A stretch of DNA of 64,000 nucleotides from Deltaproteobacteria bacterium (GCA_013152945.1 JAADFL010000205.1:23301-87300), one strand, 5' to 3'. Shown: positions 31,095 to 63,597, counted from the first letter of the stretch. Notes: generated from the letters alone by a model not told the origin. Program-made: numbers and translations.

Positions 31095-31274
31095 TTAATG
31101 TACCTCTTCCAAGTCTCTTCCAACCCTTATTAGGTTAACGGCCAAATGATGTTCAAGTCAAGGTCGCCTGTACCCGATGCCGATACACCCCGGGAAATTC
31201 TTTTACTCCGTGTTTTGACTGAGGATAATCCAGCGAAGTATCATACTGCTCGAAATCACACCTGGAGGTATTTC

Positions 31275-33191
31275 ATGAGTAAATACATGTTGCTGGAAGG
31301 ACTGTTGGGATTATTCTTACTCTTTGCCAATGCATGCGTATCCAATAACCAGGATGAATGCTCTACCGATAATGATTGCGATTACTGGCAGTCTTGTGAC
31401 AGCGGCAAGTGCATGGCCATTCAGTGCGATATGTACCTGGATTGCCCGGACGATACAAAGTGCGTAAACGGGACTTGCACACCCTCGGGTGACGTGGATA
31501 CCGATACTGATACTGATACCGACACTGATGCTGATACTGATATCGACACTGACACAGACACTGACATAGACACCGACACCGACACCGACACAGACATAGA
31601 CACCGACACTGATACTGATACCGATACTGACACTGACACTGATACTGACACTGATGCTGATACCGACACTGATACCGACACTGATACTGACACTGACACT
31701 GATACCGATACTGATACCGACACTGATACCGACACTGATACCGACACTGATACTGACACTGATACTGACACTGACACTGACACTGGTACTGATACTGATA
31801 CTGACACTGGTACTGATACGTCAATCTACTGCCAGGAGTTGGACAGCCCCAACCAGTTGATTGCCGACCGGCGATTTCAGCGCGGCTTTACTGTACTGGA
31901 CCAGGTCACGCACCAACCCGGGGGCAAAATACTTACCGGATTTTGTCCTGGTGATCCCATCTGGGACATTGCCCAGTGGGACAGCCTTGGCGACCTGGGC
32001 AAGACCACACGCCAGACGCTCACGTCAGGAGCAGTACGCTGGGCCAATCAATACGGCCGCGTGACAGTCGGACCTTTGGGAAGCAAGGATTCCGACCTGG
32101 CTCTTGCAGTCTGGGCGTATGAGGAATATGGCGGCCAGTACCATACTCCTACTCCCGAACGAAAATGGGTACACATGCTGGCTGAGCAGCGAATCAGCCC
32201 GCCGGGAACAAACCGGCCGGGTTGTCCGCCCATCTCTTCACTTTCATCCCTTGATTTCAATCTCGTGGCCAGGCTCCTGCAGGACGATCCCCACTACCAG
32301 GAAGGATACGATAAGAGCAAGCACGCCGCACAGTTCCTGATTTACTTCACGGTGCAGAACCTGAATACCAACAACCCAGGGTTCGGTGACTATTTGTGGT
32401 TCGGGATCACACCGTACGACGACCGTTACGACATAGTGCCCGTTTACGTACAAGGAGACCTGGGAGGCAATATGGGTACTGGTAAACTCATCTACAACCT
32501 GGGTGGAGAGCCGTTCCTCGATAAAGGACTGAAACCGGGAGGTCCCGAACAAGTCTTTTCAAAGGACGTCCTTCCCGATGTCCGCAACGCCCTCCTCACT
32601 GCGTGGGACCGTGGTTTCATTCCTGACTCAAAGGTTCTTTCCGATTACAAGATCGGCGGCATGAACATAGGCTGGGAGGTACCTGGTTTGAACAACGTGG
32701 AAATGCAGGTTCGAGACCTGTCCCTTACGTACCGGAAGAAAGCCGTGACACCGGTGGTCTTCGACTTCAACAAGGACGGTGATACAGAAGGCTGGACCGC
32801 AAACAATCTCGAGGATCTTGGGTCGAAACCAGGGCCGGAGGAAGGCCTCTGGATTCTGCGGGCACCCGGCGCCGACCCCTCGATAACCAGTCCAGAGTTG
32901 AGTCTTGAGGCCGCCACACATCCAACCTTGCACCTGGTAGTAGCCAATGACCATAACCCGGCTGAAACCTCCACCCTCCAGGTATACTGGGACAGGTTCG
33001 GCGAACCAGGCTTTCGGGAGGCTTGGAGCGTATCTCGCCCAATCAGCAACGGCGGCGGTTGGCAGACCCTGGACATCGATCTCGGGGCCCAACCAGGATG
33101 GCGCGGCGAGATTTCACATATCAGGATCGATCCGGTAACAAGCGGGGACGGTCATGCCATTGGCATTGATCAGATAGCATTGCTGCCTTGA
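31275..33191 (+). CDS. Secreted TD-repeat protein with N-terminal Cys-rich knot and C-terminal globular domain
   Basis: GGAGGT RBS before ATG 31275; the ORF track starts at an upstream in-frame ATG 31146. Signal peptide, a Cys-rich ~50-aa module, about 108 aa of DTDTDT, then a ~450-aa domain. Confidence 0.7.
   Translation: MSKYMLLEGLLGLFLLFANACVSNNQDECSTDNDCDYWQSCDSGKCMAIQCDMYLDCPDDTKCVNGTCTPSGDVDTDTDTDTDTDADTDIDTDTDTDIDTDTDTDTDIDTDTDTDTDTDTDTDTDTDADTDTDTDTDTDTDTDTDTDTDTDTDTDTDTDTDTDTDTDTDTGTDTDTDTGTDTSIYCQELDSPNQLIADRRFQRGFTVLDQVTHQPGGKILTGFCPGDPIWDIAQWDSLGDLGKTTRQTLTSGAVRWANQYGRVTVGPLGSKDSDLALAVWAYEEYGGQYHTPTPERKWVHMLAEQRISPPGTNRPGCPPISSLSSLDFNLVARLLQDDPHYQEGYDKSKHAAQFLIYFTVQNLNTNNPGFGDYLWFGITPYDDRYDIVPVYVQGDLGGNMGTGKLIYNLGGEPFLDKGLKPGGPEQVFSKDVLPDVRNALLTAWDRGFIPDSKVLSDYKIGGMNIGWEVPGLNNVEMQVRDLSLTYRKKAVTPVVFDFNKDGDTEGWTANNLEDLGSKPGPEEGLWILRAPGADPSITSPELSLEAATHPTLHLVVANDHNPAETSTLQVYWDRFGEPGFREAWSVSRPISNGGGWQTLDIDLGAQPGWRGEISHIRIDPVTSGDGHAIGIDQIALLP
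31492..31818 (+). repeat. (GAYACN)n hexanucleotide tract encoding (Thr-Asp)n
   Basis: gataccgatactgatactgataccgacact and similar units, period 6, in frame. Confidence 0.85.
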
Positions 33192-37871: not shown

Positions 37872-38291
37872 ACAAGCCTTGATTACAGTGATACTGCCGG
37901 GTCCCTGTTGCATAATATAAAAATTGACAAGCATTAGAGGAGATATAAGCCGCCAACTGTACATGCTGCCGCCCTCTGGCGATCACTTCGTCAGAGTTCA
38001 CTCCAGGTGTGCTATCTCTCTTTCCGATATGCAAGAGTGCACATCGTCTTTGCCTGGATCATGGTTGTACATCCTTGCTCTACGTTTCATCCGTGCCCAA
38101 GGGACAACGTATGTCTGTCAGGCATATGCATTCCCGGTGACTGCTGTTTTGGCATTTCAGACAGGAACTCGACGGCGGCCCTCCTTGCAAATAAATATAA
38201 AACATGGGATCAGCCGGGCCGGTTTAGTCGACGCTGTGGACAACTTGTCGAGGCTGTTATAAAAGATTGAGATTGCATGGAGGATACGGAC

Positions 38292-39302: not shown

Positions 39303-42300
39303 TTATTTTTTTTCATCCGCACCAATGTCCGGGTGACCGTCCTCCGCTCTTGAGTCCCCTTCGAAGTCTTTTTTTACATCCAATATTTCCGGATTACCGT
39401 CTATAGTTTCCGGTGCACCTGAATCAATACACGCTGATCTATTGTCCAGGTGCCAATCTCCATTGACAATGTTGCTCCAGTCCGGATTCACGAAATCAGG
39501 ATTGTCATCAATATTCCTGGCCGGTCGCACTGCGGACCCAAAGTGATTGTTTATCCAGGTAAGGTTTCTGTCCTGGTCACCCTGGCTCGTACTGTCATTG
39601 TACAGGCTGTCCAAACTCGTGCTGTCGAAGTCATTATTCCAGACTATGGACGGCTCCAACCTGGGAGCAAACTCGTAAATGCCGTAAGCTCCATGGGTCA
39701 GCACATTGGAAATAAGTTGTAGCCTTCCTATCGGCTCATCGCTGTTGCTGTCCGACCAGAGACAAATCGATGAAGAGAATGCACTCGCAGACCCGGCCAG
39801 GATGACATTGTGAAACACTACGGGATCCAGGCTTTCATTTGACTCGGGCAGGAAGAAGCCAAGTCCGCAGGTGTCTTCCGAATCGCCTCCATGTATAATA
39901 TTGTTTATTACGATTGCAGTGGAGCTGTCCAGGCCGAGGCCTGTGCAAGGCATTCCGCACGTATCACCGCCTGTGATTTGGTTGGAATCTATTATGACCG
40001 GGTTGTTGTCCTGTGCCACTGTCACTCCCTTTATAAGAATTCCATCACAATGAATGTTCTGCCTCCACCGGCCGCCGTTGTCACAACTTGGTCCGACTAT
40101 ATGGTTATGCCTTATAACAGGAGTCGCACCGTTTTCTACCAGTACGGCCTGACCATTTTCATCATCATAGAATCTCCTGTCCCTGACATTACCCCCAATG
40201 ATGGTGTTCCATTCCACCAGGGGCGAGGCAGCGCCGCCGGAAATAAAGAGCCCCCTCAAGTAGGAAGCCTGACCGGTAATTATCCCGTTTCCTGCAAAAG
40301 TCGGACTGGCACTGTCCATCCTAACTGTGTAAGCAGTGGTATTTCCGCCTCCTGCATCATTGCCGTGGAAAATACAACCCCTGACCTCTACGTCTCTCGT
40401 GACACCGGGAGCAAAGGTGAAGCCGTTGTTTTGGTCGGTATATACATTGGTTGGAAAGTTATTGGGATCCAAGAGCCATGAACCCGGATTGTAACCGCAA
40501 AACAGGCTGGCGTCTGCCGGAATCTGAAATGTTTCGTTGTATTCACCCCCGGCCGTCAGTACACCGGTTATGAACCCATTAACCCCTGTCAACTCGGATG
40601 CCCTGGCAAGCCCCCTTGTGATGGTAAGGCATGGTTGTGTCCTGGTGCATGGATTGGAATCGTCGCTGCCCGACGACTGGGATACATAGGCTGCTGATTG
40701 GCCGGCGCCGTTTTCCGAAATATCAATCTTTACCGTATCCTGGTCCGTGCCGCCGTCTCCGTCGTCGACGGTAAGGGTTATGTCCCAAGTGCCAACAGGC
40801 AACCTGATAGTGGGATTGGCGCCGTCCGCTACATGAACCCCGCTGATGGACCACGAGTATGAAAGCTGGTCGCCATCCTGGTCCGTGGATCCGGTGCCGT
40901 CCAGATGCACCGGGGTCAACGTGGCATTAGCGATGAGATTTTGATTGTTTCCAGCATCCGCAATAGGTGGATTGTTCATGGAATTGACGGAAACAGCGTC
41001 ATGTGCCACGCCGTTGCAGCCGTCTCTAACTTCCAGATCAAGTGTAAAGACTCCTTTTACATCAGGTGTGAACCTTGGAATCAACGTATCGCGACCATTG
41101 ATATCCGTGTTGGAAAGACTGCTTCCTTGCGGTCTTGCCGCAAAACTCCAGATGTAGGCCAATGGATTGCCGTCGGGATCGGAGGCAGAGCCGGAAAGAG
41201 CAATTTCGTGAAGGTTGAGCACCGAAGTATCCTGCCCTGCATTGGCTAAAGGATCCCTGTTTGAAAGGATGGTGATTTGCAGGTCTTTTTGTACCGTATC
41301 CGGTTGTTGGTCGGTGACCGAAGCAGTGAAGGCAAGTGCCCCTGCAGTAGCCTTGTACGGAATACCGTGCAATACACCGGATGAATCCAGCATGAGCCCG
41401 GCCGGTGCAAGGTTGTTTCCCGCCTCTGTCCAGGAGTACGGAGATACGCCCCCGGTTGCCTGTAAGCTGTAACTCCCGTAGTCCACGCATTCCCTGGCCT
41501 GTGGCAGGTCCGTGCTGTTCGTGACTATTTGCAGGGCTGGAGGTGTTACAACGATGTCCACGTTCTGCGAGTCTGTTCCGCCGTCGTTATCATTTACGGT
41601 CAGCCGCAATGTAAATGTCCCGGCCACATCAGGTATAAACCATGCCCGGCTCGCATTCGCTCCGTTGATATCGGAACCGTCCAGAATGCTGTCTGTCGGT
41701 TTTGCAGCAAACTCCCAAGCATAGCCGATTGTATCACCGTCAGGATCACTCGATCCCGTGCCATCCAGATCGACCCTGTTGCCTGTTTCAGCCGATGCCG
41801 GGGCAACTACCAAAGCTTTCGGAGCATTATTCAATGCCGTGGCAGTGACTTGTGCGCTGCTTGAACCACCGCAACCATCAGTGAGGGCTAGCTCCAAGAC
41901 GTAGTCACCCTTCTTGTCGGGGAAGAAGGAACAATGTGTCGAGTCGGAGCCGACAAGATTCGAGTCCGTGATGGTGCTGCCTGTTGGTTTCGAAACCAGG
42001 CTCCACGAGTAGGTGAGAGGATTGGCATCAGGGTCGCTGCTGCCGCTTCCATCCAGGACGAGCTGTGACAGGTTGGGCCCCGAAACATTGTTCCCGGCAT
42101 CTGCCGTTGGATCGCGGTTGGGCAGAACAATTAAATCCAGGCTGCGGTCGGCCGTTGCATTATCATGATCCGTGACCCTGGCCGTGAACGTATAGGTGTT
42201 TGCAGTGCCGGGATCAGGCCTGCCTTGAATTATGCCGTTGGAGAGCAACTGTAATTGCAACGGCAGGTCGCCGCTTACCTTTGAAAATGCGTAAGGAGAG

Positions 42301-44240: not shown

Positions 44241-44357
44241 GTCTTCCTCCAGAATCATGCTGCTCGAACATTGAAACAAGTCAATCATATCATAATTTTT
44301 GGAAGTTGACACAAGGCGCGTGCGCCCGTAGTTTGTCTGATGGATAGGAGTATTAAC

Positions 44358-45001: not shown

Positions 45002-46744
45002 TTGAAGGTACACCATCTAGACAAGCTCATCAAGAGATGCGCAAAGGAGTTGGCTTTTAGAAAAGCTCTGCAGGCCTTGAAGCTTTCATTGCCTTGGTCA
45101 TTGGTGTCCTTTGCCGTTTCCCTCTTGCTTTTGCCTCTTGGTCCTGCATGGCTCGCAGCAATATACTTATTGGTACCGATACTCATCCCCATTCTGTGGG
45201 CGGCCATGGCTTATCGAAAAGGATTGGACCTTGAATCAGCCGCATCAGCCCTTGACAAGGCGGCAGGTGAATCCGACCTGTTTTCCTCTGCCTTCGAGTT
45301 CCAGAAAGAGGCACGAGACACAGTAGATGTTTCAAAGGGCGCACCAGCGGCCCCGGAACAATTGGCCGCGTATGCGGTCCCCGACCGATTGGCCGCGTAT
45401 GCGGTCCCCGACCGAATGGCCGCGTCTGCGGCCTCTATAATGAAGCAATTGACCATTGCAAGGGCAGAAGAAAGAGCGGCCGAAGTTTGGAAAAGTCCGA
45501 TGCCCAGGCCGGAACCGAGGTCCATGTCATGTACTCCTGCAATAATCGGACTAACCCTGTTCCTGTCCGTATTCCTGGCAGGTGAGACAGGCAACCCATT
45601 ACTCGTTCATAACAACATGAAACCCGGGACATCCAGATATGTAACAGAAAGCACATCTCCTTTACCGGCAATGACCCCGCAAAGGAGAACCATGAAAAAG
45701 GCGCTTCATGTTCTGGCTGACTTGCTTACCAAAAAAGAAAAGGACCATACCTCCCTGCTCGAAAAGCCGAAAGAACAGCCTCCAAAGGATCAAAAACAGG
45801 GCGCGCCTGAAAAACATGGCCGTATGATCCAAAAACCCATCTCTGAAAGAATAATGGCAGCCAAGTCCGAACACTATTTCAGGGTCGCGGAAATAATGAA
45901 CGACCTGTCCACAAAAAAGACCTTCAAGGCCAAGGGAAAGTTCGACCATGGGGTCGATGACATGGTGAGATATCTCGATTCCAAGGTATTGAGGGGAAAG
46001 AACCTTTCCGGCAAGAAACTCGAAGACATGGCCGAAAAGGTGGATGACTTGTCACAACGCATGTCCGAGCTGGCTGCATCCAGGGAAGGCAGGCAGGCAA
46101 TGGACCCAATAGGCATGACCCATACCGGAGGCTTCAGCAACGAGATACAGGGACTGCTGCGTAGATCCCTTGCGGAATTCCTGCGCCACTATGCATCCAC
46201 ACTCCGGGCCAGGGCGGAACAAATCTCCAGGGAACAAAGCAGGTACAAGAAAGCCTTGGCAATGGCGCGCATGGGCAGACCAAAAAAAACAAGGCGAACG
46301 GGACTTCACAGCGATGCACCTGCAGATGGCCCCATGGCCATGGACAAAAATCCTTCACCGGATGTTTCTATTGCGCCCATGAAGCCTCCAGAGAACATCG
46401 AACCAAACAACATGAAGGGAAACGGCACTACACCCGGGGCCAAGGGCGCGGGAGCAGGCAAGGGGCCGAGAGCCAAACCACAGGAAATAGGCAAGGCGGG
46501 CGAGTACGATTACTTGAAGGTGAAGGCCAGGGTGGGACAGGGTAAATCATGTTTCGAGCTTCTAAAGGGAACCGCTCCGGGAGATGCCGAAGAAATAGAT
46601 TCAGAGGCGTTCAAAGGGCTTGTACAGACAAGTTCGTCCAAGGCTGAAAAGACCATGGAGCAAGAGCCCATACCAGAGGATCTCAAGGAGATAATAAAAG
46701 GTTACTTCAAGGCCCTGAGTCCTCAGGACAGGCCGGATGGATGA
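45002..46744 (+). CDS. Hypothetical membrane-anchored protein (N-terminal 2 transmembrane segments, Lys-rich cytoplasmic region)
   Basis: TTG start with an AAGGAG RBS. Two hydrophobic helices near the N-terminus. Contains an in-frame 27-bp tandem repeat. Stop overlaps the DUF58 start. Confidence 0.5.
   Translation: MKVHHLDKLIKRCAKELAFRKALQALKLSLPWSLVSFAVSLLLLPLGPAWLAAIYLLVPILIPILWAAMAYRKGLDLESAASALDKAAGESDLFSSAFEFQKEARDTVDVSKGAPAAPEQLAAYAVPDRLAAYAVPDRMAASAASIMKQLTIARAEERAAEVWKSPMPRPEPRSMSCTPAIIGLTLFLSVFLAGETGNPLLVHNNMKPGTSRYVTESTSPLPAMTPQRRTMKKALHVLADLLTKKEKDHTSLLEKPKEQPPKDQKQGAPEKHGRMIQKPISERIMAAKSEHYFRVAEIMNDLSTKKTFKAKGKFDHGVDDMVRYLDSKVLRGKNLSGKKLEDMAEKVDDLSQRMSELAASREGRQAMDPIGMTHTGGFSNEIQGLLRRSLAEFLRHYASTLRARAEQISREQSRYKKALAMARMGRPKKTRRTGLHSDAPADGPMAMDKNPSPDVSIAPMKPPENIEPNNMKGNGTTPGAKGAGAGKGPRAKPQEIGKAGEYDYLKVKARVGQGKSCFELLKGTAPGDAEEIDSEAFKGLVQTSSSKAEKTMEQEPIPEDLKEIIKGYFKALSPQDRPDG
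45362..45433 (+). repeat. 27-bp direct tandem repeat (2.6 copies) inside CDS
   Basis: ttggccgcgtatgcggtccccgaccga occurs twice in tandem, followed by the partial copy atggccgcgtctgcggcc. It encodes LAAYAVPDR twice, then MAASAAS. Confidence 0.85.
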
Positions 46745-47624
46745 CCTGAGTTCCTTTTTCACGCCTGAATTCCTGGCCCGGATATCACGTGTAAGCTTGT
46801 TTGCAGGTAAGCTCGTTGGAGGAGGAAGACCTTCTGACAGGACGTCCAAGAGAACAGGAACCGGGACAGAGTTCGCGGATCACCGCGAATATATACACGG
46901 TGACGATCCAAAGCAGATAGACTGGCGCCTGTATGGAAGAACAGGCAAGTTCTTCACCAAGCTGTACCACTCCGAGGAAGATCGCATAGTTACCATTGCC
47001 CTGGATTGCAGCAGTTCCATGTCCGCAGGCCGGGACAAGTTCGACCTTGCACGCAGGCTTGCCGGGGCACTGGTTTTCCTTGCAACAAAGGACAGGGACA
47101 CTGCTGTAATCGCTCCTTTTGACGAAAAGGTTCGTAATCCCTTGCATGGCCTGCGTGGAGAACCTGGCTTCAGGCGCTCCCTCGGGTGGCTCAGTGGGCT
47201 CGATGCAAAAGGGCATACCGACTTGCCGGGCGTGGCAGGGAATCTGCTCGGCCTTGTAAAATCCAGGGGACCGATAATATTGATCTCGGATCTCATGGAT
47301 TCTAGGACACAGTCCGCCGGATTCCTGTCGTCACTGACCGGGAAGCATGGAGAGGCGGTAATCATACACGTATTCGCCCCGACAGACCGGGAGCCGCAAA
47401 TAAGAGGGTATGTGAGAATAATGGATGTAGAAGATAATAACAGCATACCTGTTCTGCTGGACTCCAGGCTTGCAAAGCGATACACAGAGACGTTCGACAT
47501 GTTCCGCAAATCCATGAAAGCAAGGTGCCGGTCGCTCGGCATCAGGTATGTAAGCATATCGAGCGACAAGGATCTCGCAGAGGTATTTCTCAAGGAATTC
47601 AGGGAGGCAGGAATAACCTGTTGA
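46737..47624 (+). CDS. DUF58-family protein (MoxR-associated vWA-like)
   Basis: 'GTEFADHREYIHGDDPKQIDWRLYGRTGKFFTKLYHSEEDRIVTIALDCSSSM' matches the DUF58 signature (G.EF...R.Y..GDD.R.IDW ... D.S.SM). Confidence 0.75.
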   Translation: MDDLSSFFTPEFLARISRVSLFAGKLVGGGRPSDRTSKRTGTGTEFADHREYIHGDDPKQIDWRLYGRTGKFFTKLYHSEEDRIVTIALDCSSSMSAGRDKFDLARRLAGALVFLATKDRDTAVIAPFDEKVRNPLHGLRGEPGFRRSLGWLSGLDAKGHTDLPGVAGNLLGLVKSRGPIILISDLMDSRTQSAGFLSSLTGKHGEAVIIHVFAPTDREPQIRGYVRIMDVEDNNSIPVLLDSRLAKRYTETFDMFRKSMKARCRSLGIRYVSISSDKDLAEVFLKEFREAGITC

Positions 47625-47636
47625 TTGTTGTTTGGC

Positions 47637-49532
47637 ATGAAGTTCACCGGAATATCTGAAATTCAGGCTGCCGCACTTTTATCAGGCTCTCTCTTGCTCC
47701 TGGCCTTGCTCTTTTTATTAAGGGGCAGACGCCGGAAACTGGTGGTCGGCACCTTTCCTGTATGGACCATGTTGCTCGGACGTTCAAGAGTGGATTTCAG
47801 GGCCCTTTTCGCATTATTCTTTGAAATGCTTGCTGCAGCAATGCTCTGTCTTGCCCTTACAGGCCCCACGCTTCGCGGGACAACCGATCGCAGGCAGGCC
47901 CTGGCGATCCTGGTGGATCAGGGTGTTACTTCGAGCGTGATCACGCCAAGAGGGACCAGGCTCCTTGTCTGGTCCAGGTTTGCAGACAAGGTACTGAAAA
48001 AAATACCCGAAGACGTACCGGTCTTGGTCGCGGGCGCTGCCGATCACCTGGATATACTTGCCGGTCCATGGGCAAGCAAGGGTGAGGCAAGAGCGGCTCT
48101 GGCCAAGTTGGAGACAAAACCGGTTATGAGCATGCCCATGCAGGCCGTGGAGACGGCATGCCGTGCGCTCTCTGCGTGGACTTCATCGAGGGAGCCGGCC
48201 GTGCTCTATATAGGCGGTGAAGATGAATTACCCGAGGCCCAGCTCGAAAACGGTTGCAGGCTCTATCCGGTAGGGCTTCGCGCCAAGGTCGACAACCTGG
48301 CAATAACAGGTTTCATGGCGCGAAGGACATCCGGCTTCGGCCGGGGATATCGTCTTTTTGTCAAGGCAAGGAATTTTGCCAGTAGAACGCGCAAAACCAG
48401 GCTTTCGGTATACTCGCCTTCAACCGTATTCGGCTCCGAAGAAGTGAGCATCCCGGGACGCGGATCAATCGAGCGATCCTACAAACTGGATGAAGAAGGA
48501 GGGACCGAGGGCAGACTCGCGGCCGGATTGCAGGGGATTAATGGCAGACCGGCCGATGGCTTTGCATTGGACGACACGAGGTACGCAGTAGTGCCCAAGG
48601 GTAGACGTATCAAAGTCTTACTGGTTACGCAGGGCAATCTGTTTTTTTCAAAAGGCCTGGCTGTAAATCCTGCTGTTTCCCTTGAAACCATGGCCCCGGT
48701 GGAGTTGAAAAAGCTTTCCACAGGAACCAAACCCGACGTGGTTGTGCTGGATGATACAGCCATGCCTAAAAAATACTCCGGCAACATGCTCCTGTTCGGG
48801 CCGAATGCCGCAGGTTCGAGGTTCAAACTGGGAAAGGAAATCAAGAACCCTGTCGTGTATTCATGGAACATCGAGCATCCGCTGCTTCGCAATGTTCGCT
48901 TGTCCAGTCTTGAGATAGAAAAGGCTAAACCGATACAGGCCGAACCCGGTGACAAGGTCATCGCCAGTGATTCAAATAATAACAACTTGATGGTAGTAAG
49001 GGATGATGGAAAAGAAAAAATTCTTGCAATCGCCTTCAAACTCACTGACTCTGACCTGCCTTTAAAGATAGCCTTTCCTGTCATGCTGGCCAACTTCACG
49101 GATTGGTGCGTCAAGGCGGAAACAAGTTTGAACGGACGCGAGGTAGGGCTGGGGACCTTTCAAGTCGTGGACAATGGCACCGGTTCCGGGCCTGTCACGG
49201 TCAGGGGTCCCGGTGGTTTGAATGTCGATGTCGTGCAACGTGCAGGAGGGCCGTCCATATTCATTCGGGAACCTGGTTTCTACACAATAACTCAGGGGAA
49301 AAACAGTTATACCCTTGCAGCCAACTTCACAGACAAATCTGTGTCAGCAAGATTGGCAAGGCCGTTACGTAGATCCGACGGAACAGGCGAGCATATATTC
49401 AACATCATTTCCGAACGTTACGGCAGCAGGAAGGGAAAGCCGGACCGTCCTCTTACAAAAATATTGCTCCTGGCTGCCTTGAGTCTCGTTGGAATGCTAT
49501 GGATTGGACATGGTACAGGACTTTTTCATTGA
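47637..49532 (+). CDS. BatA_N (aerotolerance-regulator N-terminal) domain membrane protein
   Basis: N-terminal pattern ALLSGSLLLLALLFLLRGRRRKLVVGTFPVW is typical of BatA_N. The large extracytoplasmic region has no recognisable motif. Confidence 0.6.
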   Translation: MKFTGISEIQAAALLSGSLLLLALLFLLRGRRRKLVVGTFPVWTMLLGRSRVDFRALFALFFEMLAAAMLCLALTGPTLRGTTDRRQALAILVDQGVTSSVITPRGTRLLVWSRFADKVLKKIPEDVPVLVAGAADHLDILAGPWASKGEARAALAKLETKPVMSMPMQAVETACRALSAWTSSREPAVLYIGGEDELPEAQLENGCRLYPVGLRAKVDNLAITGFMARRTSGFGRGYRLFVKARNFASRTRKTRLSVYSPSTVFGSEEVSIPGRGSIERSYKLDEEGGTEGRLAAGLQGINGRPADGFALDDTRYAVVPKGRRIKVLLVTQGNLFFSKGLAVNPAVSLETMAPVELKKLSTGTKPDVVVLDDTAMPKKYSGNMLLFGPNAAGSRFKLGKEIKNPVVYSWNIEHPLLRNVRLSSLEIEKAKPIQAEPGDKVIASDSNNNNLMVVRDDGKEKILAIAFKLTDSDLPLKIAFPVMLANFTDWCVKAETSLNGREVGLGTFQVVDNGTGSGPVTVRGPGGLNVDVVQRAGGPSIFIREPGFYTITQGKNSYTLAANFTDKSVSARLARPLRRSDGTGEHIFNIISERYGSRKGKPDRPLTKILLLAALSLVGMLWIGHGTGLFH

Positions 49533-52113
49533 AATAGTTTCCAGGCTGTACCCTGGCCCGGGACAGGTGCTGTTTGCATCCAAGGCTATGCTGTGGCTCT
49601 CGGTCTTGGCTGTAATTCCCGCTGTCTTGGCATTGGTGAAACATGCCGAACTCGGCTGGGCCAGGGTCATTCCAATCGCCCTTTCAAGGGTGCTTTTCGT
49701 GGTGGCCGTTGTCTTGCTGCTGGCCGGGCCGAAAAGAGTAGAGAAAAAGGAATCCCTCGACATGGTCGTGGCAATCGATGCAAGTATGAGCATTTCCAAT
49801 TCCAGGCTCAAGGCTGAAAAAGAAGCGGCGTCAAAGTTGGTCGATGAGGCATTAAGCCAAGGCGCAGGCAAGGCTAATGTAATATTGTTTTCAGACACTG
49901 CCGCGATTTTGCCACTGCCGGCCGGACAAAAGGATATCAAGGCTTTGATAACTGGTGCAAAAAGGCCTCCCGGGAGAGGCACGGACATAGCCGGCGCCTT
50001 GAGGAGATCGTACCCGATGCTCGGCGCGAATGCAGCCAGGGTGGTTGTGCTCTTTTCTGATGGAAACCAGACGAGCGGCGACATAAAACAGGAAGCCCTG
50101 AGGGCGGCATCCCTTGGAATAAAACTTTACGCCTTCAACCCCAAGGCTCCAGTTGGAGGCATCCGGTTACTCTCAATCAGTGCGCCTAAAGAGGTTCGCG
50201 CATCCAAGGAAGTAAGGATAACGGCCAAGGTGCATTCGGATAGGGCTGTAATGTCGCATGTCTCGCTGTGGAAGGCCAAGGAGAAGATTGCCGAAAAGAA
50301 AGTACGTCTTAAAAAGGGTAAAAATGAAATTGATTTCAAAATCAATGCTCCCGGCGAGCCCGGACTTCTTGACTACAAGGTGGTTGCCAGGGCATGGCCT
50401 CCTGACGTGCAGAGGATGAACGATGTGCTGGCAACCAGGATACAGGTGGAACCAAGACCAAAGATCTTGATCCTAAGGCCCAAGAACCGGCCGGGATCGA
50501 ACATGACCGGTCTACTCAAGAGCCTTGATGCGGACATAGATGAAAAACCGATTGACGATTTTCCTCCCGATATGTACGGACTCGTCCAGTATGATCTCGT
50601 TGTGCTGGATGAGCCCTCGGCAAAAGACCTTGACGGCCCGGCCGTGAAAAGGCTTGGGAAATACCTCCAGGATATGGCTGGAGGCCTGTTGTTCATCGGC
50701 GGGAAAAGATCAAAGGATATTTCAGCCAAGCAGGAAGCGCCGATAGAGCACCTGTTGCCCCTCAGGTTGAAGCGAAGGAAAAAAAGGGAAAAACTGTCCC
50801 TTGCCATGGTTCTCGTAATCGATCGTTCAGGCAGCATGGCCAGAGACGACAAGTTTGTGGCGGCATTGCGGGCTGCCCATGCAGCCATAGACGAACTCAA
50901 GGACGAGGTCAGAGTGGCATTGGTGCTCTTTGCAGATGAGCCGGAAGTCGTGCTGCCGTTGACCTTGGCAAAGAAAAGGAAGGAGATTGACGCGGCCCTG
51001 GAAGGCCTTGAGGTGGGCGGAGGAACCTCGATATATCCGGCTCTTGAAAAGGCTTACGAAATTTTGAAAGGCGTGGATGCAAAGGTCAAGCATATATTGT
51101 TATTGACTGACGGCGAGTCGGTTTCCAGGTTCGAACAGCATACAGACCTGGTCGAGGAAATGACATCCAAGAAGATGACCATTTCGACCGTGGCCCTGGG
51201 CCCTGACGCAGAGCGCAGGCACTTGCGACGATTGGCGGCGGCCGGGGGAGGAAGGTACTACTACGCACCCACCCCTGACAAGGTGCCCAAGATCTTCACC
51301 AGGGAAACAAGAACCGTGTCTGAAACAGGTGCGGTGGAAAGAAAATCGGAAATTGCCGCAGCCAAGAGGAGCGACATACTGAAAGGCCTTGCCATCGAGA
51401 ACGCTCCTCCCTTTTCAGGACTGCTCTACGGAGAGATCAAGCCTGCTGCCGAATTGATCTTGGAGACAAAAAAACACGAGCCTTTATTGGCAAGGTGGAG
51501 GTACGGTCTCGGCCAGGTCGTGATGTTCACTTCCGATTGTTTCGGCCCGTGGACAAGTACATGGAACAACTTCAGCAAGGCCGCCGAGCTGTTCAGGCGC
51601 ATGGCAGGTGCAGGGATCCGGAGAAACAGGATTTCCTCTCTTTCAATCAATGCCAGACCTGTCAGAGACCACGTCGAGATCACCGTATCCGGCCGGGAAG
51701 GAGCATCCGGGTTGCCGGCTCCGGATGCACTCGATCTCGTGGTGGTGGACCCCCTGCTTAAAACTGAAAAACTCAAGATGAAAAGGTTAGGGACAGCCAC
51801 GTATTCTGCACGATATGTGCCCAAAAGACCAGGTCCCTACCTGTACAGGATTGAACACGTTGTGCACGGCAAGGTCATCGAATCGGCTACTGCAAGACTG
51901 GTCGAGGCATACCCGGAAGAATTCGCATCAGAGCATGATGCAGTCGACGTATTGAAAAAGGCATGCCAACTGACCGGTGGAAAACTAAATCCAAGTCCTA
52001 TGGAAATATTCCAAGACAAGGTAACCAACAAAAAAACTATTTCCCTTGGAAACTCTCTGATATATTTTGCATTGGGTTTATTGTTGTTTGAAACAGCTAT
52101 TAGAAGAGTATAG
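49510..52113 (+). CDS. Membrane protein with two von Willebrand factor A domains (BatA/BatB-like)
   Basis: N-terminal transmembrane helices, then 'LDMVVAIDASMSIS' and 'LAMVLVIDRSGSMARD ... GGGTSIYPALEKA ... LLLTDGES' vWA/MIDAS motifs. The start codon is uncertain (49489 or 49510). Confidence 0.7.
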   Translation: MVQDFFIEIVSRLYPGPGQVLFASKAMLWLSVLAVIPAVLALVKHAELGWARVIPIALSRVLFVVAVVLLLAGPKRVEKKESLDMVVAIDASMSISNSRLKAEKEAASKLVDEALSQGAGKANVILFSDTAAILPLPAGQKDIKALITGAKRPPGRGTDIAGALRRSYPMLGANAARVVVLFSDGNQTSGDIKQEALRAASLGIKLYAFNPKAPVGGIRLLSISAPKEVRASKEVRITAKVHSDRAVMSHVSLWKAKEKIAEKKVRLKKGKNEIDFKINAPGEPGLLDYKVVARAWPPDVQRMNDVLATRIQVEPRPKILILRPKNRPGSNMTGLLKSLDADIDEKPIDDFPPDMYGLVQYDLVVLDEPSAKDLDGPAVKRLGKYLQDMAGGLLFIGGKRSKDISAKQEAPIEHLLPLRLKRRKKREKLSLAMVLVIDRSGSMARDDKFVAALRAAHAAIDELKDEVRVALVLFADEPEVVLPLTLAKKRKEIDAALEGLEVGGGTSIYPALEKAYEILKGVDAKVKHILLLTDGESVSRFEQHTDLVEEMTSKKMTISTVALGPDAERRHLRRLAAAGGGRYYYAPTPDKVPKIFTRETRTVSETGAVERKSEIAAAKRSDILKGLAIENAPPFSGLLYGEIKPAAELILETKKHEPLLARWRYGLGQVVMFTSDCFGPWTSTWNNFSKAAELFRRMAGAGIRRNRISSLSINARPVRDHVEITVSGREGASGLPAPDALDLVVVDPLLKTEKLKMKRLGTATYSARYVPKRPGPYLYRIEHVVHGKVIESATARLVEAYPEEFASEHDAVDVLKKACQLTGGKLNPSPMEIFQDKVTNKKTISLGNSLIYFALGLLLFETAIRRV

Positions 52114-57301: not shown

Positions 57302-60300
57302 TCAGTCTCGTCCGAAAATCCGGGAAAAAAGCCCTCTGACCTTACCTGAGCCGGAAAGTTCTTCGGCATCCAACTCAACACTGGCTCCTCTGGTCTTCAA
57401 CTTGACGCCCAATCTTTCGATAACGTCATCAGGCGTGTACTTTGTGGACAGCCTAACCACGGCTCTCCTGCCGGTCCGTTCATCCTTTACGGTTACCGTC
57501 AGCAGGGCTTCCCTGTTGAGACCCACTGCTATTTCGAACTTTCTCGTTCCTCTGGGCCCCTTTGGGATGTTGGCGATAATCATGCTCCCGATAAACTCGT
57601 TTTCCTGGATTTTGTCACTTTCACCTTGGAAAAAATGTACTTCCAGAGTTTTTTGATTGTCCTTGGTCGTACCCAGTTTATACCTGGCAAGGTGAGGCAA
57701 CCTGGTTTGGGCAGGGATTATTGGCATGAACCGCCCTCCCGGAAGTCCCACGCCGATACTCTGGGGCAATACATCGACCAGCGCTACCTTTCTTTCCTCG
57801 TCTTGACTGTTGGCCAACAAAGCTGCGCCCACTGCCACGGCCTCGTCCGGATGCACGCCTTTGGACGGTGCCCTGCCGAAATGTTCCTCTATCATTCGGT
57901 GAATCAACGGCATGCGGGATTGGCCCCCTGTGAGCAGCACTGCATCCACATCCGCCACTGAAATGTCGGCGGATGCAAGTACCCTGTCGCTGACCTGCAA
58001 GGTCTTTTCAACAAGGTCTATAACTATCTCTTCGAATTCATTTCTACTAATCTCCACCGACAGATCTCTTGGCTTACGATCTATGACAGCAATATACGGC
58101 AACTCCACTTTTACCGATTCCTGACCGGACAATGTACGCTTTGCCTCTTCTGCCGCCTCGATTATCCTCTGGAGAACCATGGGATCATCAGGCAAATCAA
58201 CTCCCTCCGCTTCCTTGAACTTGTCCCAGATGAGAGTCACCAGCCGGTAGTCGAAATCCATTCCCCCCAGAAAAGTCTCTCCGCCCGTTGCCGCAACTTC
58301 GAACACATTTCCCTTGATACTTACAACCGAGGCATCGAATGTTCCTCCACCAAGGTCATACACCAGAACCCGTTTGTTCTTTTCTTTGTTGAACCCATAA
58401 GCCATTGCAGCAGCCGTGGGTTCGTTCACTATCCTCGTTATTTCCAAGCCGGCAAGCTCTCCGGCCTTTCTTACCGCGGATCGCTGATTCTCGTTATAGT
58501 ATGCAGGAACGGTAACCAGTGCCTTTTTCACATTGGCTTCCAGGTACATGGAGGCCAACTTTTTTACTTCTTTCAAGACAAGGGCGCTTATCTCCTGCAA
58601 TGTATACTCTTTGTCCCCCAGCTTGACCGCAGTATCATGGTGCGCTCCGGGCACGATTTTATAACTCATATGTCTTTTTACTTCCTCCACAAGTGGAGAG
58701 CCGTATTTCCTGCCGATGAGCCTCTTGAAACCATAAACCGTAAACTTGGGATTCGTTATCCTTTGCCTGGCCGCGGGTTCACCCACTGCAAACCTGCCGT
58801 CCTCCCATGCTACAATCGAAGGGATGGTATTCTTTCCTTGCGGTGTGGGTATTATTAATACCTTGCCGTCCTTGACCACGCTGGCGCAGCTATATGTTGT
58901 TCCAAGATCAACACCTATCGGAGACGCGTCGCTTTCGTACACAACCTCCCCGTTGCCTGTAGAAACAACATCTTCTGCGGCTTCATTCCCGGATTCAAGC
59001 GTTTTGGCCGGTTCTCTTGCTTCATCTTTTTCCCCGGTCTCATCCGTCTCTTTTGCCTTGGCTTTAATCTCTTGTTCAGCGCTATCCTTTGCCTGCGGTT
59101 TTTCTCGCAAGCCGGGTCCCTCATCATCTCCGAATAGCAAACTGTCATCTATCGCCAGGTCCAGGTCATCCTGGTCTACTTGACTGGAATCCCTTTCTTC
59201 TTCAATGTCCTCATTGCCGATCTCGAACTCTCCGGTGTTTCCTTCTGACGAGCCAAGTTCGTCCAGATCTTCGACCTCAAGATCGGCAGGAACAGCATGA
59301 ATCGGCTCGCTGTTTTCTTCATCCTGTCCCTCGAACTCTTGCAATTCCCTTTCATTGTCGAGAGCCGTTTGTGAAGACTCTTGTAATTCCACCGGCACCT
59401 CGAAAGAAACTTCTTCCTCCTCGCCCGTATCCTGGATGCCGGATTCAACAGGTGCTTTCTCCTCACCTTTTCCTTCCTGTTTTTCCCGGGTTGAAACAGG
59501 GACCTCGGGCCAATTCTCACCTGTTTCGGCCTTGACGGCAACTTCTTCACTATCAATATCTTCTGTTTCAATTGCCTTTACATCCTGTGGACCGGATGCG
59601 CCTGCTCCTTGCTCTTTTTCTTGTTCTTCATCGGCCGGGAAAGCATCTTCTTCTATCTCGATATCGATGTCTGTATCTCCTAATTCATCGATTTCTTTAT
59701 CCCCGGTCTCCTGTTGTTCCTCCCCGCTTTTCTTTTTTCCCTCTTCCGTTTCTTCTCTTTCTTTTGATACTTCTTTCTTAAGCTCCGGCTCGACTCGCTG
59801 TTCAGCCGAAGTCAATGTAGATGCCGCCTTTGTTTCATCCCGCGACATTGACTGCACACTATCCCCGTCCTCCAGGGGATCCAACACCTCGACAGCCACA
59901 TCATCCTCATCAAGATCCTTGTTTTTCTCCACAAGGTTCTTCAGCCAGTCTCGATCCATTGGATGAACATCCAAAAATTCTATTCCCATACCTGCCGGTT
60001 CACCCTCAAAAGACTGTTCTTTTGTCCTGATCCATCTAACAATCCCGCTTGCCATCAACAAGTGTACACCGCTCTTAAACTCCATGGTGATGCCTATTAT
60101 TGTGCCGACCGGTTGGGGCGTTGAAGTTCGAATAAAGATGCCTGATTCACTTATATTTGCAGAATACCTTTCCAAAAGCTGGTTTTCATCCTTGAACCTC
60201 AATGTGATTTTCTTGAAAAAAGGGGCTCGTTCCGCACTCCTGTTCTCGTTGTCAATATTGTCTTTTGTCATTATTTCCTCCATGAAGCCGGGATCAGCCG

Positions 60301-60304
60301 GCAA
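57302..60304 (-). CDS. PilZ-domain / acidic linker / Hsp70 (DnaK-family, lid-less) fusion protein
   Basis: The N-terminal ~110 aa is PilZ-like ([16 protein letters not shown] ... [11 protein letters not shown]), paralogous to the 60400..60798 product. About 300 aa of Glu/Asp-rich disorder follow. The C-terminus has Hsp70 hallmarks '[14 protein letters not shown]', '[14 protein letters not shown]' and '[11 protein letters not shown]', plus an SBD-beta, with no helical lid. Confidence 0.85.
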
Positions 60305-60399: not shown

Positions 60400-60798
60400 T
60401 CAAGCCAGGGGATCGGTGACCTCTACCTCGACGTCGTCTTCGGCATCACTGGCCTTGGCAAGGACAGAATCGAGCCACTCCTTGTCCTTGGGATGTATGT
60501 CCAGGAACTTCAGGCCCATGCCGGGTTGGAGGCCCTTGTATTCTTCGCCTGATTCGCGAATCCACTTGACAACCGACGTGGCCGAAAAGAGATGTTCTCC
60601 ATTCTTCAACATCGCTTTCAAGGTAACAATAGTGCCCGCAGGCCGTGGGCTCCTTGTTTTCACGAACATACCCGACTCACTCAAGTTACCCGAATATTTC
60701 TCAATAAACTGCTCCTCGTCTTTGACCCTGACGGTTACGCGGCTATAGAAGGGCACCCTTTCGGCAGCCCTTTTCTCATCTCCATTTCCTTCAGTCAT
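60400..60798 (-). CDS. PilZ-domain protein
   Basis: 'AAERVPFYSRVTVRVKDEEQFIEKYSGNLSESGMFVKT' is PilZ-like and closely paralogous to the N-terminus of the downstream Hsp70 fusion. Confidence 0.7.
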   Translation of the reverse strand: MTEGNGDEKRAAERVPFYSRVTVRVKDEEQFIEKYSGNLSESGMFVKTRSPRPAGTIVTLKAMLKNGEHLFSATSVVKWIRESGEEYKGLQPGMGLKFLDIHPKDKEWLDSVLAKASDAEDDVEVEVTDPLA

Positions 60799-61008: not shown

Positions 61009-63597
61009 ATGATGTATAAGTGTAAAAGAAAAACTGTTTCTCTTTTTTATCTACTTGCAATAATGTTCCTGCCCTGTTTCGGTGCATCGTCCCAGGTTTT
61101 TCCCGGAGCATCGTGGCAAGAAAAAAGCCCTGAAGATGTGGGCCTGGACAATTCTGTTGTAAATACATTCGTATCCGCGCTTGGCGGTGACGGTGTAATC
61201 ATCAGAAACGGTTACCTGGTAAAGAAATGGGGGAATTGGACCGGCAGAGCGGACTGGGCATCGGCGATGAAGCCTGTAATGGCTACGATGCTCTTCTTTG
61301 CCATAGAAGAAAAACGAATCGATTCGATCGATTCACTCGTAAGACCCGTGGTTCAAAGCCACCTTGGAAAAGACCTGGCAACCAAAGACCTTACCATGTC
61401 ATGGCGCCACCTGGCGGACATGACCAGCGGGTACGCCAGGGGGGAAGCGCCCGGCCGGGCATGGGCATACAACGACTATGCGATTCAACTGTACAGCGTA
61501 TTGCTTTTTGACGGTGTGTATAAAGATACGCCCGACCATGTATCGACCACACACCTGTCTCAATTGGGATTCGAGGACGGCGGCCTCTTTGGTTCAAGGG
61601 GAGGAAGGGGCCTGAATGCATCACCAAGGGACTTCGCAAGAATCGGATGGTTCTGGCTCAACAAGGGTAACTGGAACGGGACCCAGCTTTTACCCAAGAG
61701 CTACTTCGACAAGTACATGAAACCGGACGTGCCCATTGATCTGCCAAGGACGAAAAACAGCGGTTCGGACTATCTCGGGGTAGGCAGCATAGGGGGAGGC
61801 TCGGATCAGACTGAATATGGTCCGGGTATTTATGGCTTCAATTGGTGGTTCAATGCAATAACGCCGAATGGTCACATGACATGGCCGGATGCACCGGCGG
61901 ATACGTTACAGGCCAATGGTCATTGGAACAAGGAAGTCATTACAATAATTCCAAGCCTCGGCTTGGTAATCGCCTGCCGGGGAAACTGGGGAGACTTCAG
62001 GCCGGGTGATTCAAGCGCCTCCATGAACCAGAGACTCGCATCCATTGCGAATGCCGTCACCAATATGCCGCCCAGCGCGGAATCCGCTGATTACTGGGTG
62101 GAACAACCGGACTCCCTGGAAATAACGTTGAAATACACCGATCCGGACGGGCCCGGACCATATTCATTTTCTATTCTATCCGGCCCCCGACATGGTGAAT
62201 TACAAGGCTCGGGAGCAAACAGAAAATATGTTCCTGCCACAGGTTTCCATGGAGATGATTCGTTCACCTGGAACGTATACGACGGCATATCATATTCAAC
62301 AGCGGCATCTGTCAACATCACAGTGGACCAGGAGGGCAACCAGGCGCCGAAAGCGGAAGACAGCGCAGTAAAGGGGTTCATCGACCAGCCGATTCCAATA
62401 GACCTTAAATATAGCGACCCTGATGGACCCGAACCGTACAATTTCACCATTGTCTCCGGGCCTTCACACGGAACGCTCGACGGCACCAAAGACAAGCGAA
62501 CTTACACACCAGGTTCCGGCTTCGTTGGTTTGGATTCTTTTACCTGGAAGGTCCTTGATGGAGAGGGGGGCGAATCCAACCAGGCGGAATGCGATATCTC
62601 GATAAGTCGCGAACTTGAAATAGCCAACACCACGGTAGCAACAGGCAGTGCGTACAAGTGGGACAAACTGGCCCCTGGAAAAAAACAATATATAGACAGA
62701 GCATATACCTTTACAACCGTTCCGGCTCAAATGACGGGCATGGCATATCTCATGACTGCAAATGATGATAAAAAAGCAAATAACGATCCCATGGTAATCT
62801 TTGATGTCAATCAAAAAGTCAGGGTGTTCGTTGCACATGACGACAGGGCCCGGCCCAGGCCTTCCTGGTTGGATACCTGGAGTGATACAGGGGAAGATTT
62901 AGGTAACGGCGACACCAATTTCAGCCTTCTTTCCAAAGAACTTGGTGCCGGCCGGATTTCACTCGGCCCAAACAGCTGTCCAAGCGATGGATGCAGTATG
63001 TATACTGTTGTAGTCCAAGCACTTGGTTCATCCGGTGATACCGATACAGATACCGACACCGACACGGATACTGATACCGACACCGACACGGACACGGATA
63101 CTGACACCGATACTGACACGGATACTGACACCGATACTGATACCGATACCGACACCGACACGGATACTGATACCGACACCGACATGGACACGGACGCTGA
63201 CACGGATACTGACACCGATACCGATACCGACACCGACATGGACACGGACGCTGACACGGATACCGACACCGACACCGATACCGATACCGACATGGACACG
63301 GATGTAGATACGGACACTGACACTAATACAGATACTGATACGCAAACAGGATCGAATTGCGGGCAAGACGGCCGGTTCTGTTACACCAGCAATGACTGCT
63401 GCGAGGATCTGTACTGTAAATTCCTGGATCCGATGGTGCCTGAAGATGGTGGAACGTGTAAGCCCAAGGATAGCGGGGAAATATCACCTGCCTCGGGATG
63501 CGGTTGCAGTCATTCGGCTTCAACAGGCTTCCCGTCTTTTTTGTTGATGTTATTCGGTATATCTATTTTCATAGGACACAAGCATTTCAATGGATGA
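61009..63597 (+). CDS. Mosaic surface protein: beta-lactamase-fold serine hydrolase domain + cadherin-like domains + TD-repeat linker + Cys-knot + Cys-motif C-terminal sorting signal
   Basis: Signal peptide. 'WASAMKPV' SxxK motif in a beta-lactamase/PBP-like N-domain. Two 'YTDPDGPGPYSFSILSGPRHG' cadherin-like modules. About 100 aa of DTDTDT. 'CGQDGRFCYTSNDCCEDLYC' module. The C-terminus is 'GCGCS' + transmembrane helix + 'GHKHFNG'. Confidence 0.75.
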   Translation: MMYKCKRKTVSLFYLLAIMFLPCFGASSQVFPGASWQEKSPEDVGLDNSVVNTFVSALGGDGVIIRNGYLVKKWGNWTGRADWASAMKPVMATMLFFAIEEKRIDSIDSLVRPVVQSHLGKDLATKDLTMSWRHLADMTSGYARGEAPGRAWAYNDYAIQLYSVLLFDGVYKDTPDHVSTTHLSQLGFEDGGLFGSRGGRGLNASPRDFARIGWFWLNKGNWNGTQLLPKSYFDKYMKPDVPIDLPRTKNSGSDYLGVGSIGGGSDQTEYGPGIYGFNWWFNAITPNGHMTWPDAPADTLQANGHWNKEVITIIPSLGLVIACRGNWGDFRPGDSSASMNQRLASIANAVTNMPPSAESADYWVEQPDSLEITLKYTDPDGPGPYSFSILSGPRHGELQGSGANRKYVPATGFHGDDSFTWNVYDGISYSTAASVNITVDQEGNQAPKAEDSAVKGFIDQPIPIDLKYSDPDGPEPYNFTIVSGPSHGTLDGTKDKRTYTPGSGFVGLDSFTWKVLDGEGGESNQAECDISISRELEIANTTVATGSAYKWDKLAPGKKQYIDRAYTFTTVPAQMTGMAYLMTANDDKKANNDPMVIFDVNQKVRVFVAHDDRARPRPSWLDTWSDTGEDLGNGDTNFSLLSKELGAGRISLGPNSCPSDGCSMYTVVVQALGSSGDTDTDTDTDTDTDTDTDTDTDTDTDTDTDTDTDTDTDTDTDTDTDTDTDMDTDADTDTDTDTDTDTDMDTDADTDTDTDTDTDTDMDTDVDTDTDTNTDTDTQTGSNCGQDGRFCYTSNDCCEDLYCKFLDPMVPEDGGTCKPKDSGEISPASGCGCSHSASTGFPSFLLMLFGISIFIGHKHFNG
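63037..63345 (+). repeat. (GAYACN)n hexanucleotide tract encoding (Thr-Asp)n
   Basis: gataccgatacagataccgacaccgacacggatact and similar units, period 6, in frame. Confidence 0.85.

Follow-up and report, generated by a model that had tools for sequence, protein, structure and literature searches.

A putatively surface-anchored serine hydrolase of the beta-lactamase/penicillin-binding protein fold and its predicted glycosidase partner in an uncultured deltaproteobacterium

Module organization of the gene and integrity of the locus

The stretch of DNA analyzed here, referred to as the window (64,000 nucleotides; GCA_013152945.1, JAADFL010000205.1:23301-87300), originated from a Deltaproteobacteria bacterium, and the gene of interest was a single open reading frame (ORF) at positions 61009..63597 (+) that encodes 862 amino acids. 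Its product, the target, comprised a signal peptide, a catalytic head that is a serine hydrolase with the fold of beta-lactamases and penicillin-binding proteins (PBPs), two Ig/cadherin-like modules, a beta-sandwich, a stalk of Thr-Asp (TD) dipeptides, a module with six cysteines, and a C-terminal tripartite sorting tag (Table 1). The original prediction had described a mosaic of five modules (hydrolase, cadherin-like pair, stalk, cysteine knot, and tag), all of which were located in the translation in their proper places; with the beta-sandwich at residues 534 to 674, which it had overlooked, the count rises to at least six modules plus the signal peptide. In a family alignment of 32 sequences drawn from 968 database homologues of the N-domain, the conserved core starts with VFPG, right after hydrophobic N-termini of variable sequence. 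Look-ups by exact protein sequence, made for the target with each of two start codons and for one more protein of the window, returned no record.

A mosaic of this kind might also arise as an assembly artifact, in which unrelated gene halves were joined through the repetitive TD-encoding DNA, considering that the source is a metagenome-assembled genome (MAG) and that five genes carry TD arrays, counting the next gene downstream (P0197), which runs off the window. Nevertheless, such chimerism is very improbable, because the TD arrays differ in their DNA sequence (the longest exact match between the target array and the other arrays of the window was 18 nt, and the longest internal exact repeat was 41 nt) and because the parts upstream of the array (beta-lactamase fold, Ig modules, and sandwich) and those downstream of it (tag, then the GH-like gene) kept their order, or were fused, in the independent assemblies L007, L008, and L010. 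Mis-assembly of separate genes, a risk that the original prediction had itself raised, was rejected on this repeat identity and on the conserved gene order.

Table 1. Modules of the target gene and related genes of the window
Feature	Positions	Strand	Residues	Description
Signal peptide	61009..61092	+	1-28	MMYKCKRK, hydrophobic core, GAS/SQ; putative cleavage site, read from the translation
Catalytic head	61093..62058	+	29-350	Serine hydrolase, beta-lactamase/PBP-like fold
Ig/cadherin-like module 1	62065..62328	+	353-440	Contains YTDPDGPGPYSF; Pfam Big_9
Ig/cadherin-like module 2	62329..62607	+	441-533	Contains YSDPDGPEPYNF; Pfam Big_9, best stretch aa 444-525
Beta-sandwich accessory module	62608..63030	+	534-674	YIDRAYTF...TANDDK...SMYTVVV; predicted structure and profile matches
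Thr-Asp dipeptide stalk	63031..63354	+	675-782	GAYACN hexamers; 18-aa (54-nt) higher-order repeat
Six-cysteine module	63358..63459	+	784-817	Knottin-like cysteine spacing in the sequence; putative knot fold
C-terminal tripartite sorting tag	63493..63594	+	829-862	SGCGC, uncharged FPSFLLMLFGISIFIG, tail HKHFNG
Next gene (runs off the window)	63691..64000 (visible part)	+		Translation identical at every residue to the first ~103 residues of NOZ88062.1/P0197
C25 (gingipain-family) protease	15816..19088	-		Pfam Peptidase_C25, 4e-55; C-terminal TD stalk; GCEC, transmembrane segment, and RKR tag
S8 subtilase	20157..22712	+		Pfam Peptidase_S8, 5e-32; acidic E/D-rich linker; GGCGC, transmembrane segment, and Arg-rich tag

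Catalytic head and accessory modules

The top match among the 968 N-domain homologues was 59% identical to the target, and nearly all of them carried the Pfam Beta-lactamase model (PF00144) and were annotated as serine hydrolase or CubicO group peptidase (class C family). On the target itself, PF00144 barely passed (27.8 bits against a cutoff of 27, residues 80 to 161 only); the fold was assigned from the homologues together with a structure model. The AlphaFold2 (AF2) model of the head, built on the family alignment, reached a predicted local distance difference test (pLDDT) value of 92.6 and a predicted TM-score (pTM) of 0.91, and a Foldseek search with this model against the PDB returned 395 matches at E ≤ 1e-3, the best 50 of which all had the beta-lactamase/PBP-like fold. 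These included Lsa45 (8dc1), EstG (7uda/7u1c), NylB/6-aminohexanoate-dimer hydrolase (4gb7, 1wyb), PIB-1, and family VIII carboxylesterases (1ci8, 4ivi), with E values down to 3e-15, and the head was related to solved structures of this fold by TM-scores of 0.6 to 0.69 at 12 to 18% identity. The family profile matched Lsa45 at an E value of 2.7e-15, aligning S-A-x-K with S-V-T-K and Y-N-D with Y-S-N.

Three motifs were recognized in the head, namely, S85-A-M-K88 (the SxxK motif, within WASAMKPV at residues 83 to 90), Y154-N155-D156, and N303-G304-H305, of which Ser85, Lys88, Tyr154, Asn155, and Gly304 were invariant in the 32 aligned sequences. The N-terminal SxxK serine hydrolase of beta-lactamase fold that had been proposed from the DNA is therefore upheld by the invariant Ser85 and Lys88, the confident AF2 fold, and the Foldseek and profile matches, and a loss of the catalytic Ser and Lys, which would have spoken against it, was seen in none of the aligned sequences. 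The second motif, in which Tyr154 is both invariant and aligned, reads Y-N-D, so that the Asn is shifted by one position and Asp occupies the Asn position of Y-x-N. The third motif is A-N-G-H in place of K-T-G; it has no Lys, and Gly304 is its sole invariant residue. The original assignment of the SxxK motif to class C beta-lactamases and PBP-like esterases thus stands as regards the fold and the motif but not as regards strict class C membership, which was ruled out by the absence of the KTG lysine, with motif 2 altered as well. Considering the missing lysine and the Y-N-D in place of Y-x-N, the head appears nearer to an esterase or amidase than to a beta-lactamase.

The PBP-like esterases and amidases among the structural matches share with the head not only the fold but also the nucleophile and base of SxxK as well as the motif 2 Tyr, all of which are conserved and aligned. 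In contrast, the head conserves neither the Lys nor the His of a KTG or HxG motif, and its family has invariants of its own (DW before the Ser, PRDFAR, and NWWFN) as well as a habitual GH140-like partner. The head is an uncharacterized clade of the beta-lactamase/PBP-like superfamily, as defined by its fold and catalytic-type residues; these suggest a chemistry in which Ser85 would be the nucleophile and Lys88 the general base, together with Tyr154. The clade has at least 968 uncharacterized members across Planctomycetota, Hydrogenedentota, Myxococcota, Acidobacteriota, and Kiritimatiellia.

Downstream of the head, Pfam Big_9 was found in two stretches (E value of 3.7e-17; 63.4 bits against a threshold of 23.6), and the signatures YTDPDGPGPYSF (residues 376 to 387) and YSDPDGPEPYNF (residues 468 to 479) share the pattern DPDGP(G/E)PY, in agreement with the two signature-bearing cadherin-like or Ig modules originally described. 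In addition, residues 375 to 452 matched the NCBIfam tandem-95 repeat, and orthologues also matched Pfam Cadherin_5 and Cadherin_4. No Pfam model covered residues 534 to 674 in a scan of the target, while 2,801 cluster representatives of this beta-sandwich were retrieved at E ≤ 1e-3, often with two to six copies per protein. Its AF2 model was all-beta (pLDDT of 94.5) and matched the glycoside hydrolase family 2 (GH2) beta-glucuronidase 6hpd in Foldseek (TM-score of 0.80, root mean square deviation of 2.1, 25% identity), and its profile matched the C-terminal domain of 6hpd, residues 862 to 988, at an E value of 8e-20; Foldseek gave a weaker match to a GH138 enzyme domain (6hze/6hzf). A literature search on 6HPD yielded no description of its C-terminal domain. 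By this homology, the beta-sandwich is probably a carbohydrate-associated accessory module that may bind carbohydrate, which differs from its counterparts in 6hpd and GH138 in that it sits in a non-GH protein and is represented by no Pfam model.

Pairing with a GH140-like glycosidase

The gene that follows the target encodes NOZ88062.1/P0197 (826 aa; locus tag GXP49_17740), in which a GH140/DUF4038-like head is followed by two Big_9 modules, the beta-sandwich also present in the target, a stalk of TD/SD repeats, and a GCGC tag, and its cassette is 50% identical to residues 348 to 674 of the target. No terminator-like site was found on the + strand in the 93-nt gap between the two genes. When species-representative genomes were scanned with the N-domain, 80 genome loci were recovered, of which 22 had a P0197-like domain on the same strand and at least 14 had it in the same ORF; in at least 22, the two domains were either fused or next to each other. 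In the relatives L007/P0176, L008, L010, and L011, both heads were fused into a single tagged polypeptide whose accessory modules were rearranged, and the same pairing was observed in Planctomycetota and Phycisphaerae neighborhoods beside a GH10 gene, a sulfatase, and XylR-type regulators. The two catalytic domains, which form one polypeptide in related genomes, would have been split here into two separately anchored proteins.

With respect to the identity of the partner, its domain profile matched a putative glycoside hydrolase (4n0r) at an E value of 1.8e-5; the match to the DUF4038/GH140 apiosidase entry 3kzs/5msy was marginal. Pfam Apiosidase was present in 4 of 10 members and Collagen_bind_2 in 3 of 10. 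A profile was needed for these matches, as the PDB search with the single P0197 head sequence gave only noise. Our literature search on GH140 or DUF4038 together with beta-lactamase-fold hydrolases found nothing relevant. Moreover, other members of the N-domain family carried BACON, dockerin, and PEP-CTERM or type IX secretion system (T9SS) tails, that is, an extracellular and glycan-related context. From these gene arrangements, the product of the 63691 gene is predicted to be the functional partner of the target.

The fusion or adjacency of the two domains, the glycosidase-like profile of the partner, and the BACON, dockerin, and sorting tails of the family together make an extracellular esterase or amidase, working with a glycosidase on a decorated glycan, the best-supported role for the target. 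The original prediction had suggested predatory or scavenging exoenzymes; for predation no specific support was obtained with regard to the target, and the recurrence of the fusion or adjacency across at least 22 of the 80 genomes, along with the gene neighborhoods, points to glycan degradation with the GH140-like partner instead. A peptidoglycan-directed enzyme or a true beta-lactamase (a DD-peptidase, D-aminopeptidase, or other PBP-like enzyme), displayed against prey cell walls or antibiotics, could also account for the fold and the SxxK and Tyr motifs, which are common to PBPs and class C enzymes. Lsa45, the top structural match, is described as a PBP with esterase activity, the MYXO-CTERM clients of Myxococcus xanthus include a predation-linked protease, and two proteases of the window (C25 and S8) carry the same type of tag. 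We nonetheless consider this alternative unlikely, and a peptidoglycan or antibiotic role the less likely one, in view of the altered second and third motifs and of the low identity to any solved PBP or beta-lactamase. Furthermore, the head is recurrently fused or adjacent to the GH-like domain, co-occurs with BACON, dockerin, and the GH2-type sandwich, and was not found with peptidoglycan-binding modules.

Among the fused genes, that of L001 (13004-13006, equivalent to L007 12920-12922; GCA_964431605.1, CAYSLH010000027) contained an in-frame TAA where relatives have a Tyr (EGA*DLKWLD versus EGVYDFTWLD), and the downstream in-frame ORF of this interrupted gene encoded an acidic linker and a MYXO-CTERM tag passing the cutoff. 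This TAA reflects either a pseudogene or a sequencing error.

Stalk, sorting tag, and proposed display

The stalk contained 46 Thr and 51 Asp among 115 residues counted (stalk at residues 675 to 782), and Tandem Repeats Finder (TRF) detected a hexamer array at 63037-63341 with a period of 6 and ∼42 copies, along with a higher-order period of 54 nt in 5.4 copies, which bears out the hexamer-encoded TD stalk of the original prediction. Its only NCBIfam matches were to staphylococcal SD-repeat regions and were driven by low complexity. Staphylococcal Sdr/Clf proteins likewise place an X-Asp dipeptide repeat between a functional head and a C-terminal sorting signal (LPXTG in their case); however, the resemblance does not reflect homology, the target repeat has Thr rather than Ser, and the target would follow a Gram-negative lipid/outer-membrane anchor route in place of covalent attachment to the cell wall. 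Adjacent to the stalk, six cysteines at residues 784 to 817 follow the spacing C-x6-C-x5-CC-x4-C-x13-C. This spacing is compatible with a knottin, as the proposed cysteine knot would have it, but membership in a known family found no support, with Toxin_12 as the best Pfam match (12.9 bits, E value of 0.19, not significant) and no homologue of the knot-plus-tag region (82 aa) among 5.8e9 proteins. Orthologues carried Asp/Gly-rich acidic linkers where the target has its TD stalk, and the TD repeat and the six-cysteine module are specific to the lineage or MAG of the target.

TD repeats adjoined the presumed anchor in five proteins of the window and the downstream gene, the array standing at the C-terminus of the target, of the C25 protease, and of P0197 (the last mostly beyond the window end). 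That the arrays always lie beside the presumed anchor supports a putative role of the stalk as a spacer. In the genes at 120..1580 (+) and 31146..33191 (+), whose passengers had no Pfam match, the TD array came directly after a signal peptide ending in a lipobox-like Cys, and in the latter a Cys-rich block lay between anchor and array, mirroring the order of stalk, knot, and anchor in the target. Two genes downstream of a TD-stalk lipoprotein, a PMT_2 membrane protein (protein O-mannosyltransferase/ArnT-like, GT-C; 2610-4277, +) could, speculatively, be a candidate for glycosylating the Thr-rich stalks.

The tag lies at the extreme C-terminus and consists of S-G-C-G-C (residues 829 to 833, with GCGC at 830 to 833), an uncharged stretch (residues 841 to 856), and HKHFNG, and the N-terminus shows a basic n-region followed by a hydrophobic core. 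Only two NCBIfam entries were touched by the last 42 residues, namely, the MYXO-CTERM model TIGR03901.2 and a family of MYXO-CTERM-anchored proteins, at its tail. Orthologues of the head, Ig modules, and sandwich were 61 to 70% identical and came from MAGs titled Myxococcales or Deltaproteobacteria (the closest being labeled Myxococcales), and those whose C-terminus was on the contig had GCGC tags with Arg-rich tails that passed the cutoffs (L010, 31.3 versus 20; L007, 26.3 versus 20; L008 with TIGR03382, 26.3 versus 15.85). Across the 86 fetched loci, convincing tags were confined to myxobacterial-type contigs and the window, and an MXAN_5187-family protein (C-domain) in the window fits an affiliation with Myxococcota. 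According to Haft, the Cys of MYXO-CTERM is always present, frequently as GCGC, which the published logo includes; lineage-specific divergence of the tag is to be expected, and lineage-specific models are needed, since a single hidden Markov model (HMM) under-calls divergent lineages. On the basis of its position and orthology, the target tail can be assigned to MYXO-CTERM, and it appears to be a divergent or degenerate version with no Arg cluster, a Pro at the helix edge, and a subthreshold score.

A C-terminal tripartite Cys tag shared with other hydrolases of the window had been part of the original prediction and was indeed present; four proteins at the target locus had the layout of G-C-x-C, hydrophobic segment, and basic tail. 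Judging by these shared tails, the C25 protease would be the second client of the display cassette and the S8 protease the third. The claim that both proteases carry the same TD stalk and tag holds fully for C25 and, for S8, in respect of the tag (14.4 bits with TIGR03901.2, below the cutoff of 20) but not of the stalk, as no TD repeat was found in the S8 protease. Similarly, the general display system for hydrolases that had been suggested does have hydrolases as clients but is not new, because the MYXO-CTERM logo has GCGC and adhesins or hydrolases make up the majority of the 35 M. xanthus clients (Guo, Haft and Wall). In that system, MrtX cleaves the tag, the Cys residues are required, and surface localization involves a type II secretion system (T2SS) (Guo, Haft and Wall). 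The target is probably a further example of MYXO-CTERM-anchored hydrolases, with a lineage-specific stalk, within the already described MYXO-CTERM/myxosortase/T2SS display system. It shares with this system (MrtX, MrtC, and MrtP of Myxococcota and Bradymonadales; clients TraA and MepA) the succession of signal peptide, passenger, stalk, and tripartite Cys tag, and its orthologues pass TIGR03901.2 or TIGR03382. On the other hand, its stalk combines a TD repeat with one six-cysteine module, while TraA has Cys-rich repeats, and its host is an uncultured “Deltaproteobacteria” MAG. The PEP-CTERM/exosortase and GlyGly-CTERM/rhombosortase systems and the T9SS C-terminal domains follow the same tripartite C-terminal logic, and PEP-CTERM or Por-secretion tails occur on N-domain family members of other phyla; however, their signature motifs and sorting enzymes differ, and the target has neither a PEP nor a GG motif. 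Two further tails of similar layout were noted, one on an N-domain family member from a JGI metagenome (P0054, 499 aa; GCSC, transmembrane segment, and Arg-rich tail; 18.3 bits with TIGR03901.2) and one on an unrelated ORF of a Myxococcales MAG contig (L013 19888-20973, -; GGCSC, transmembrane segment, and RRRRRR).

Considering the head, its partner, and the tag together, the explanation that we favor, with moderate confidence, is that the target is a Sec-exported, surface-anchored serine hydrolase that acts on glycans, is partnered with the downstream glycosidase, and is sorted through MYXO-CTERM. By analogy with the M. xanthus system, the signal peptide would carry the target across the inner membrane, where the C-terminal hydrophobic segment would retain it; the GCGC Cys would then be lipidated, a CPBP-type intramembrane protease (myxosortase) would remove the transmembrane tail, and the T2SS would bring the lipid-anchored protein to the outer surface. 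There, the acidic Thr-Asp repeat of ∼108 residues may serve as an extended spacer and the six-cysteine module as a compact, disulfide-braced base beside the anchor, with the two Ig/cadherin-like modules and the beta-sandwich positioning or binding a polymeric substrate. The enzyme would most likely act on a decorated glycan, as an esterase or amidase, alongside the GH140/DUF4038-like glycosidase on an identical display cassette.

Several observations do not sit easily with this explanation. The target tag scored 13.7 bits with TIGR03901.2, below the curated cutoff of 20; its hydrophobic segment, STGFPSFLLMLFGISIFIG, has no charged residue and one Pro near its start; and the tail HKHFNG, with one Lys and no Arg, lacks the Arg-rich cluster that is present in the S8, C25, P0197, and orthologue tails. 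No CPBP/Rce1 family member was detected by Pfam and NCBIfam scans of the ORFs of the 64-kb window, the multi-transmembrane ORFs, both of the window and of all 86 loci, contained no CPBP motif in a regular-expression search, and no T2SS genes were found in the window or the fetched loci. In addition, the source lineage is labeled only “Deltaproteobacteria bacterium,” the fold of the knot and the role of the stalk are predictions from sequence, and the GH140-like assignment of the partner was subthreshold for most single sequences. The low HMM score, the tail with one Lys and no Arg, the Pro, and the lack of a sorting protease in the window and fetched loci would suit a C-terminal segment that stays unprocessed, so that the target would be a periplasm-facing, tail-anchored inner-membrane protein, or a decaying tag with release or mis-sorting of the protein. 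This alternative has a rather small chance of being correct, given the layout common to the four proteins of the locus, the orthologues with canonical tags above the cutoffs, and the lineage-specific divergence expected by Haft; moreover, a protein confined to the periplasm would have little use for a long stalk.

Returning to surface display by MYXO-CTERM, the target adds one more type of client, with a beta-lactamase-fold head, and a lineage-specific stalk made of the TD repeat and the Cys module, and it illustrates by how much the tags of uncultured relatives can come to fall short of the curated model. Of greater use is the Rosetta-stone connection of an uncharacterized serine hydrolase clade with a GH140-like glycosidase, a connection that provides a functional hypothesis for ∼1,000 “serine hydrolase” annotations in polysaccharide-degrading phyla; such annotations should not be read as beta-lactamases in resistome surveys. 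A bolder proposal, which we offer only tentatively, is that the beta-lactamase-fold clade constitutes a new family of esterases or amidases acting on glycans, which would work in obligate partnership with a new glycosidase family related to GH140/DUF4038 to attack a decorated polysaccharide, and that the pair is here displayed on TD stalks, possibly O-glycosylated, via a divergent MYXO-CTERM route.

Elsewhere in the window, a 1,863-aa RHS/YD-repeat protein with NHL/teneurin-like repeats was encoded at 5484-11075 (+), with a G+C content of 0.60 to 0.63 against ∼0.51 elsewhere, which suggests an acquired polymorphic-toxin locus. At 57302-60304 (-), a PilZ domain was fused via a highly acidic linker of ∼300 aa to a full Hsp70/DnaK, preceded by a stand-alone PilZ gene (60400-60798, -) that closely resembles the fused PilZ domain in sequence. 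A PorV/PorQ-family-like outer-membrane protein (38277-39233, +; subthreshold match) adjoined a gene for a protein of 1,669 aa with about ten PKD/K319L-like, Big_9, and He_PIG repeats (39303-44312, -). SelA (selenocysteine synthase; 14333-15766, -) was also present, indicating that the organism uses selenocysteine, and its best nonself homologue was just 55 to 61% identical, pointing to a deep-branching lineage. Finally, a run of DUF58, membrane protein, and VWA/DUF58 genes at 46737-52113 (+) resembled Bat/aerotolerance-type operons.

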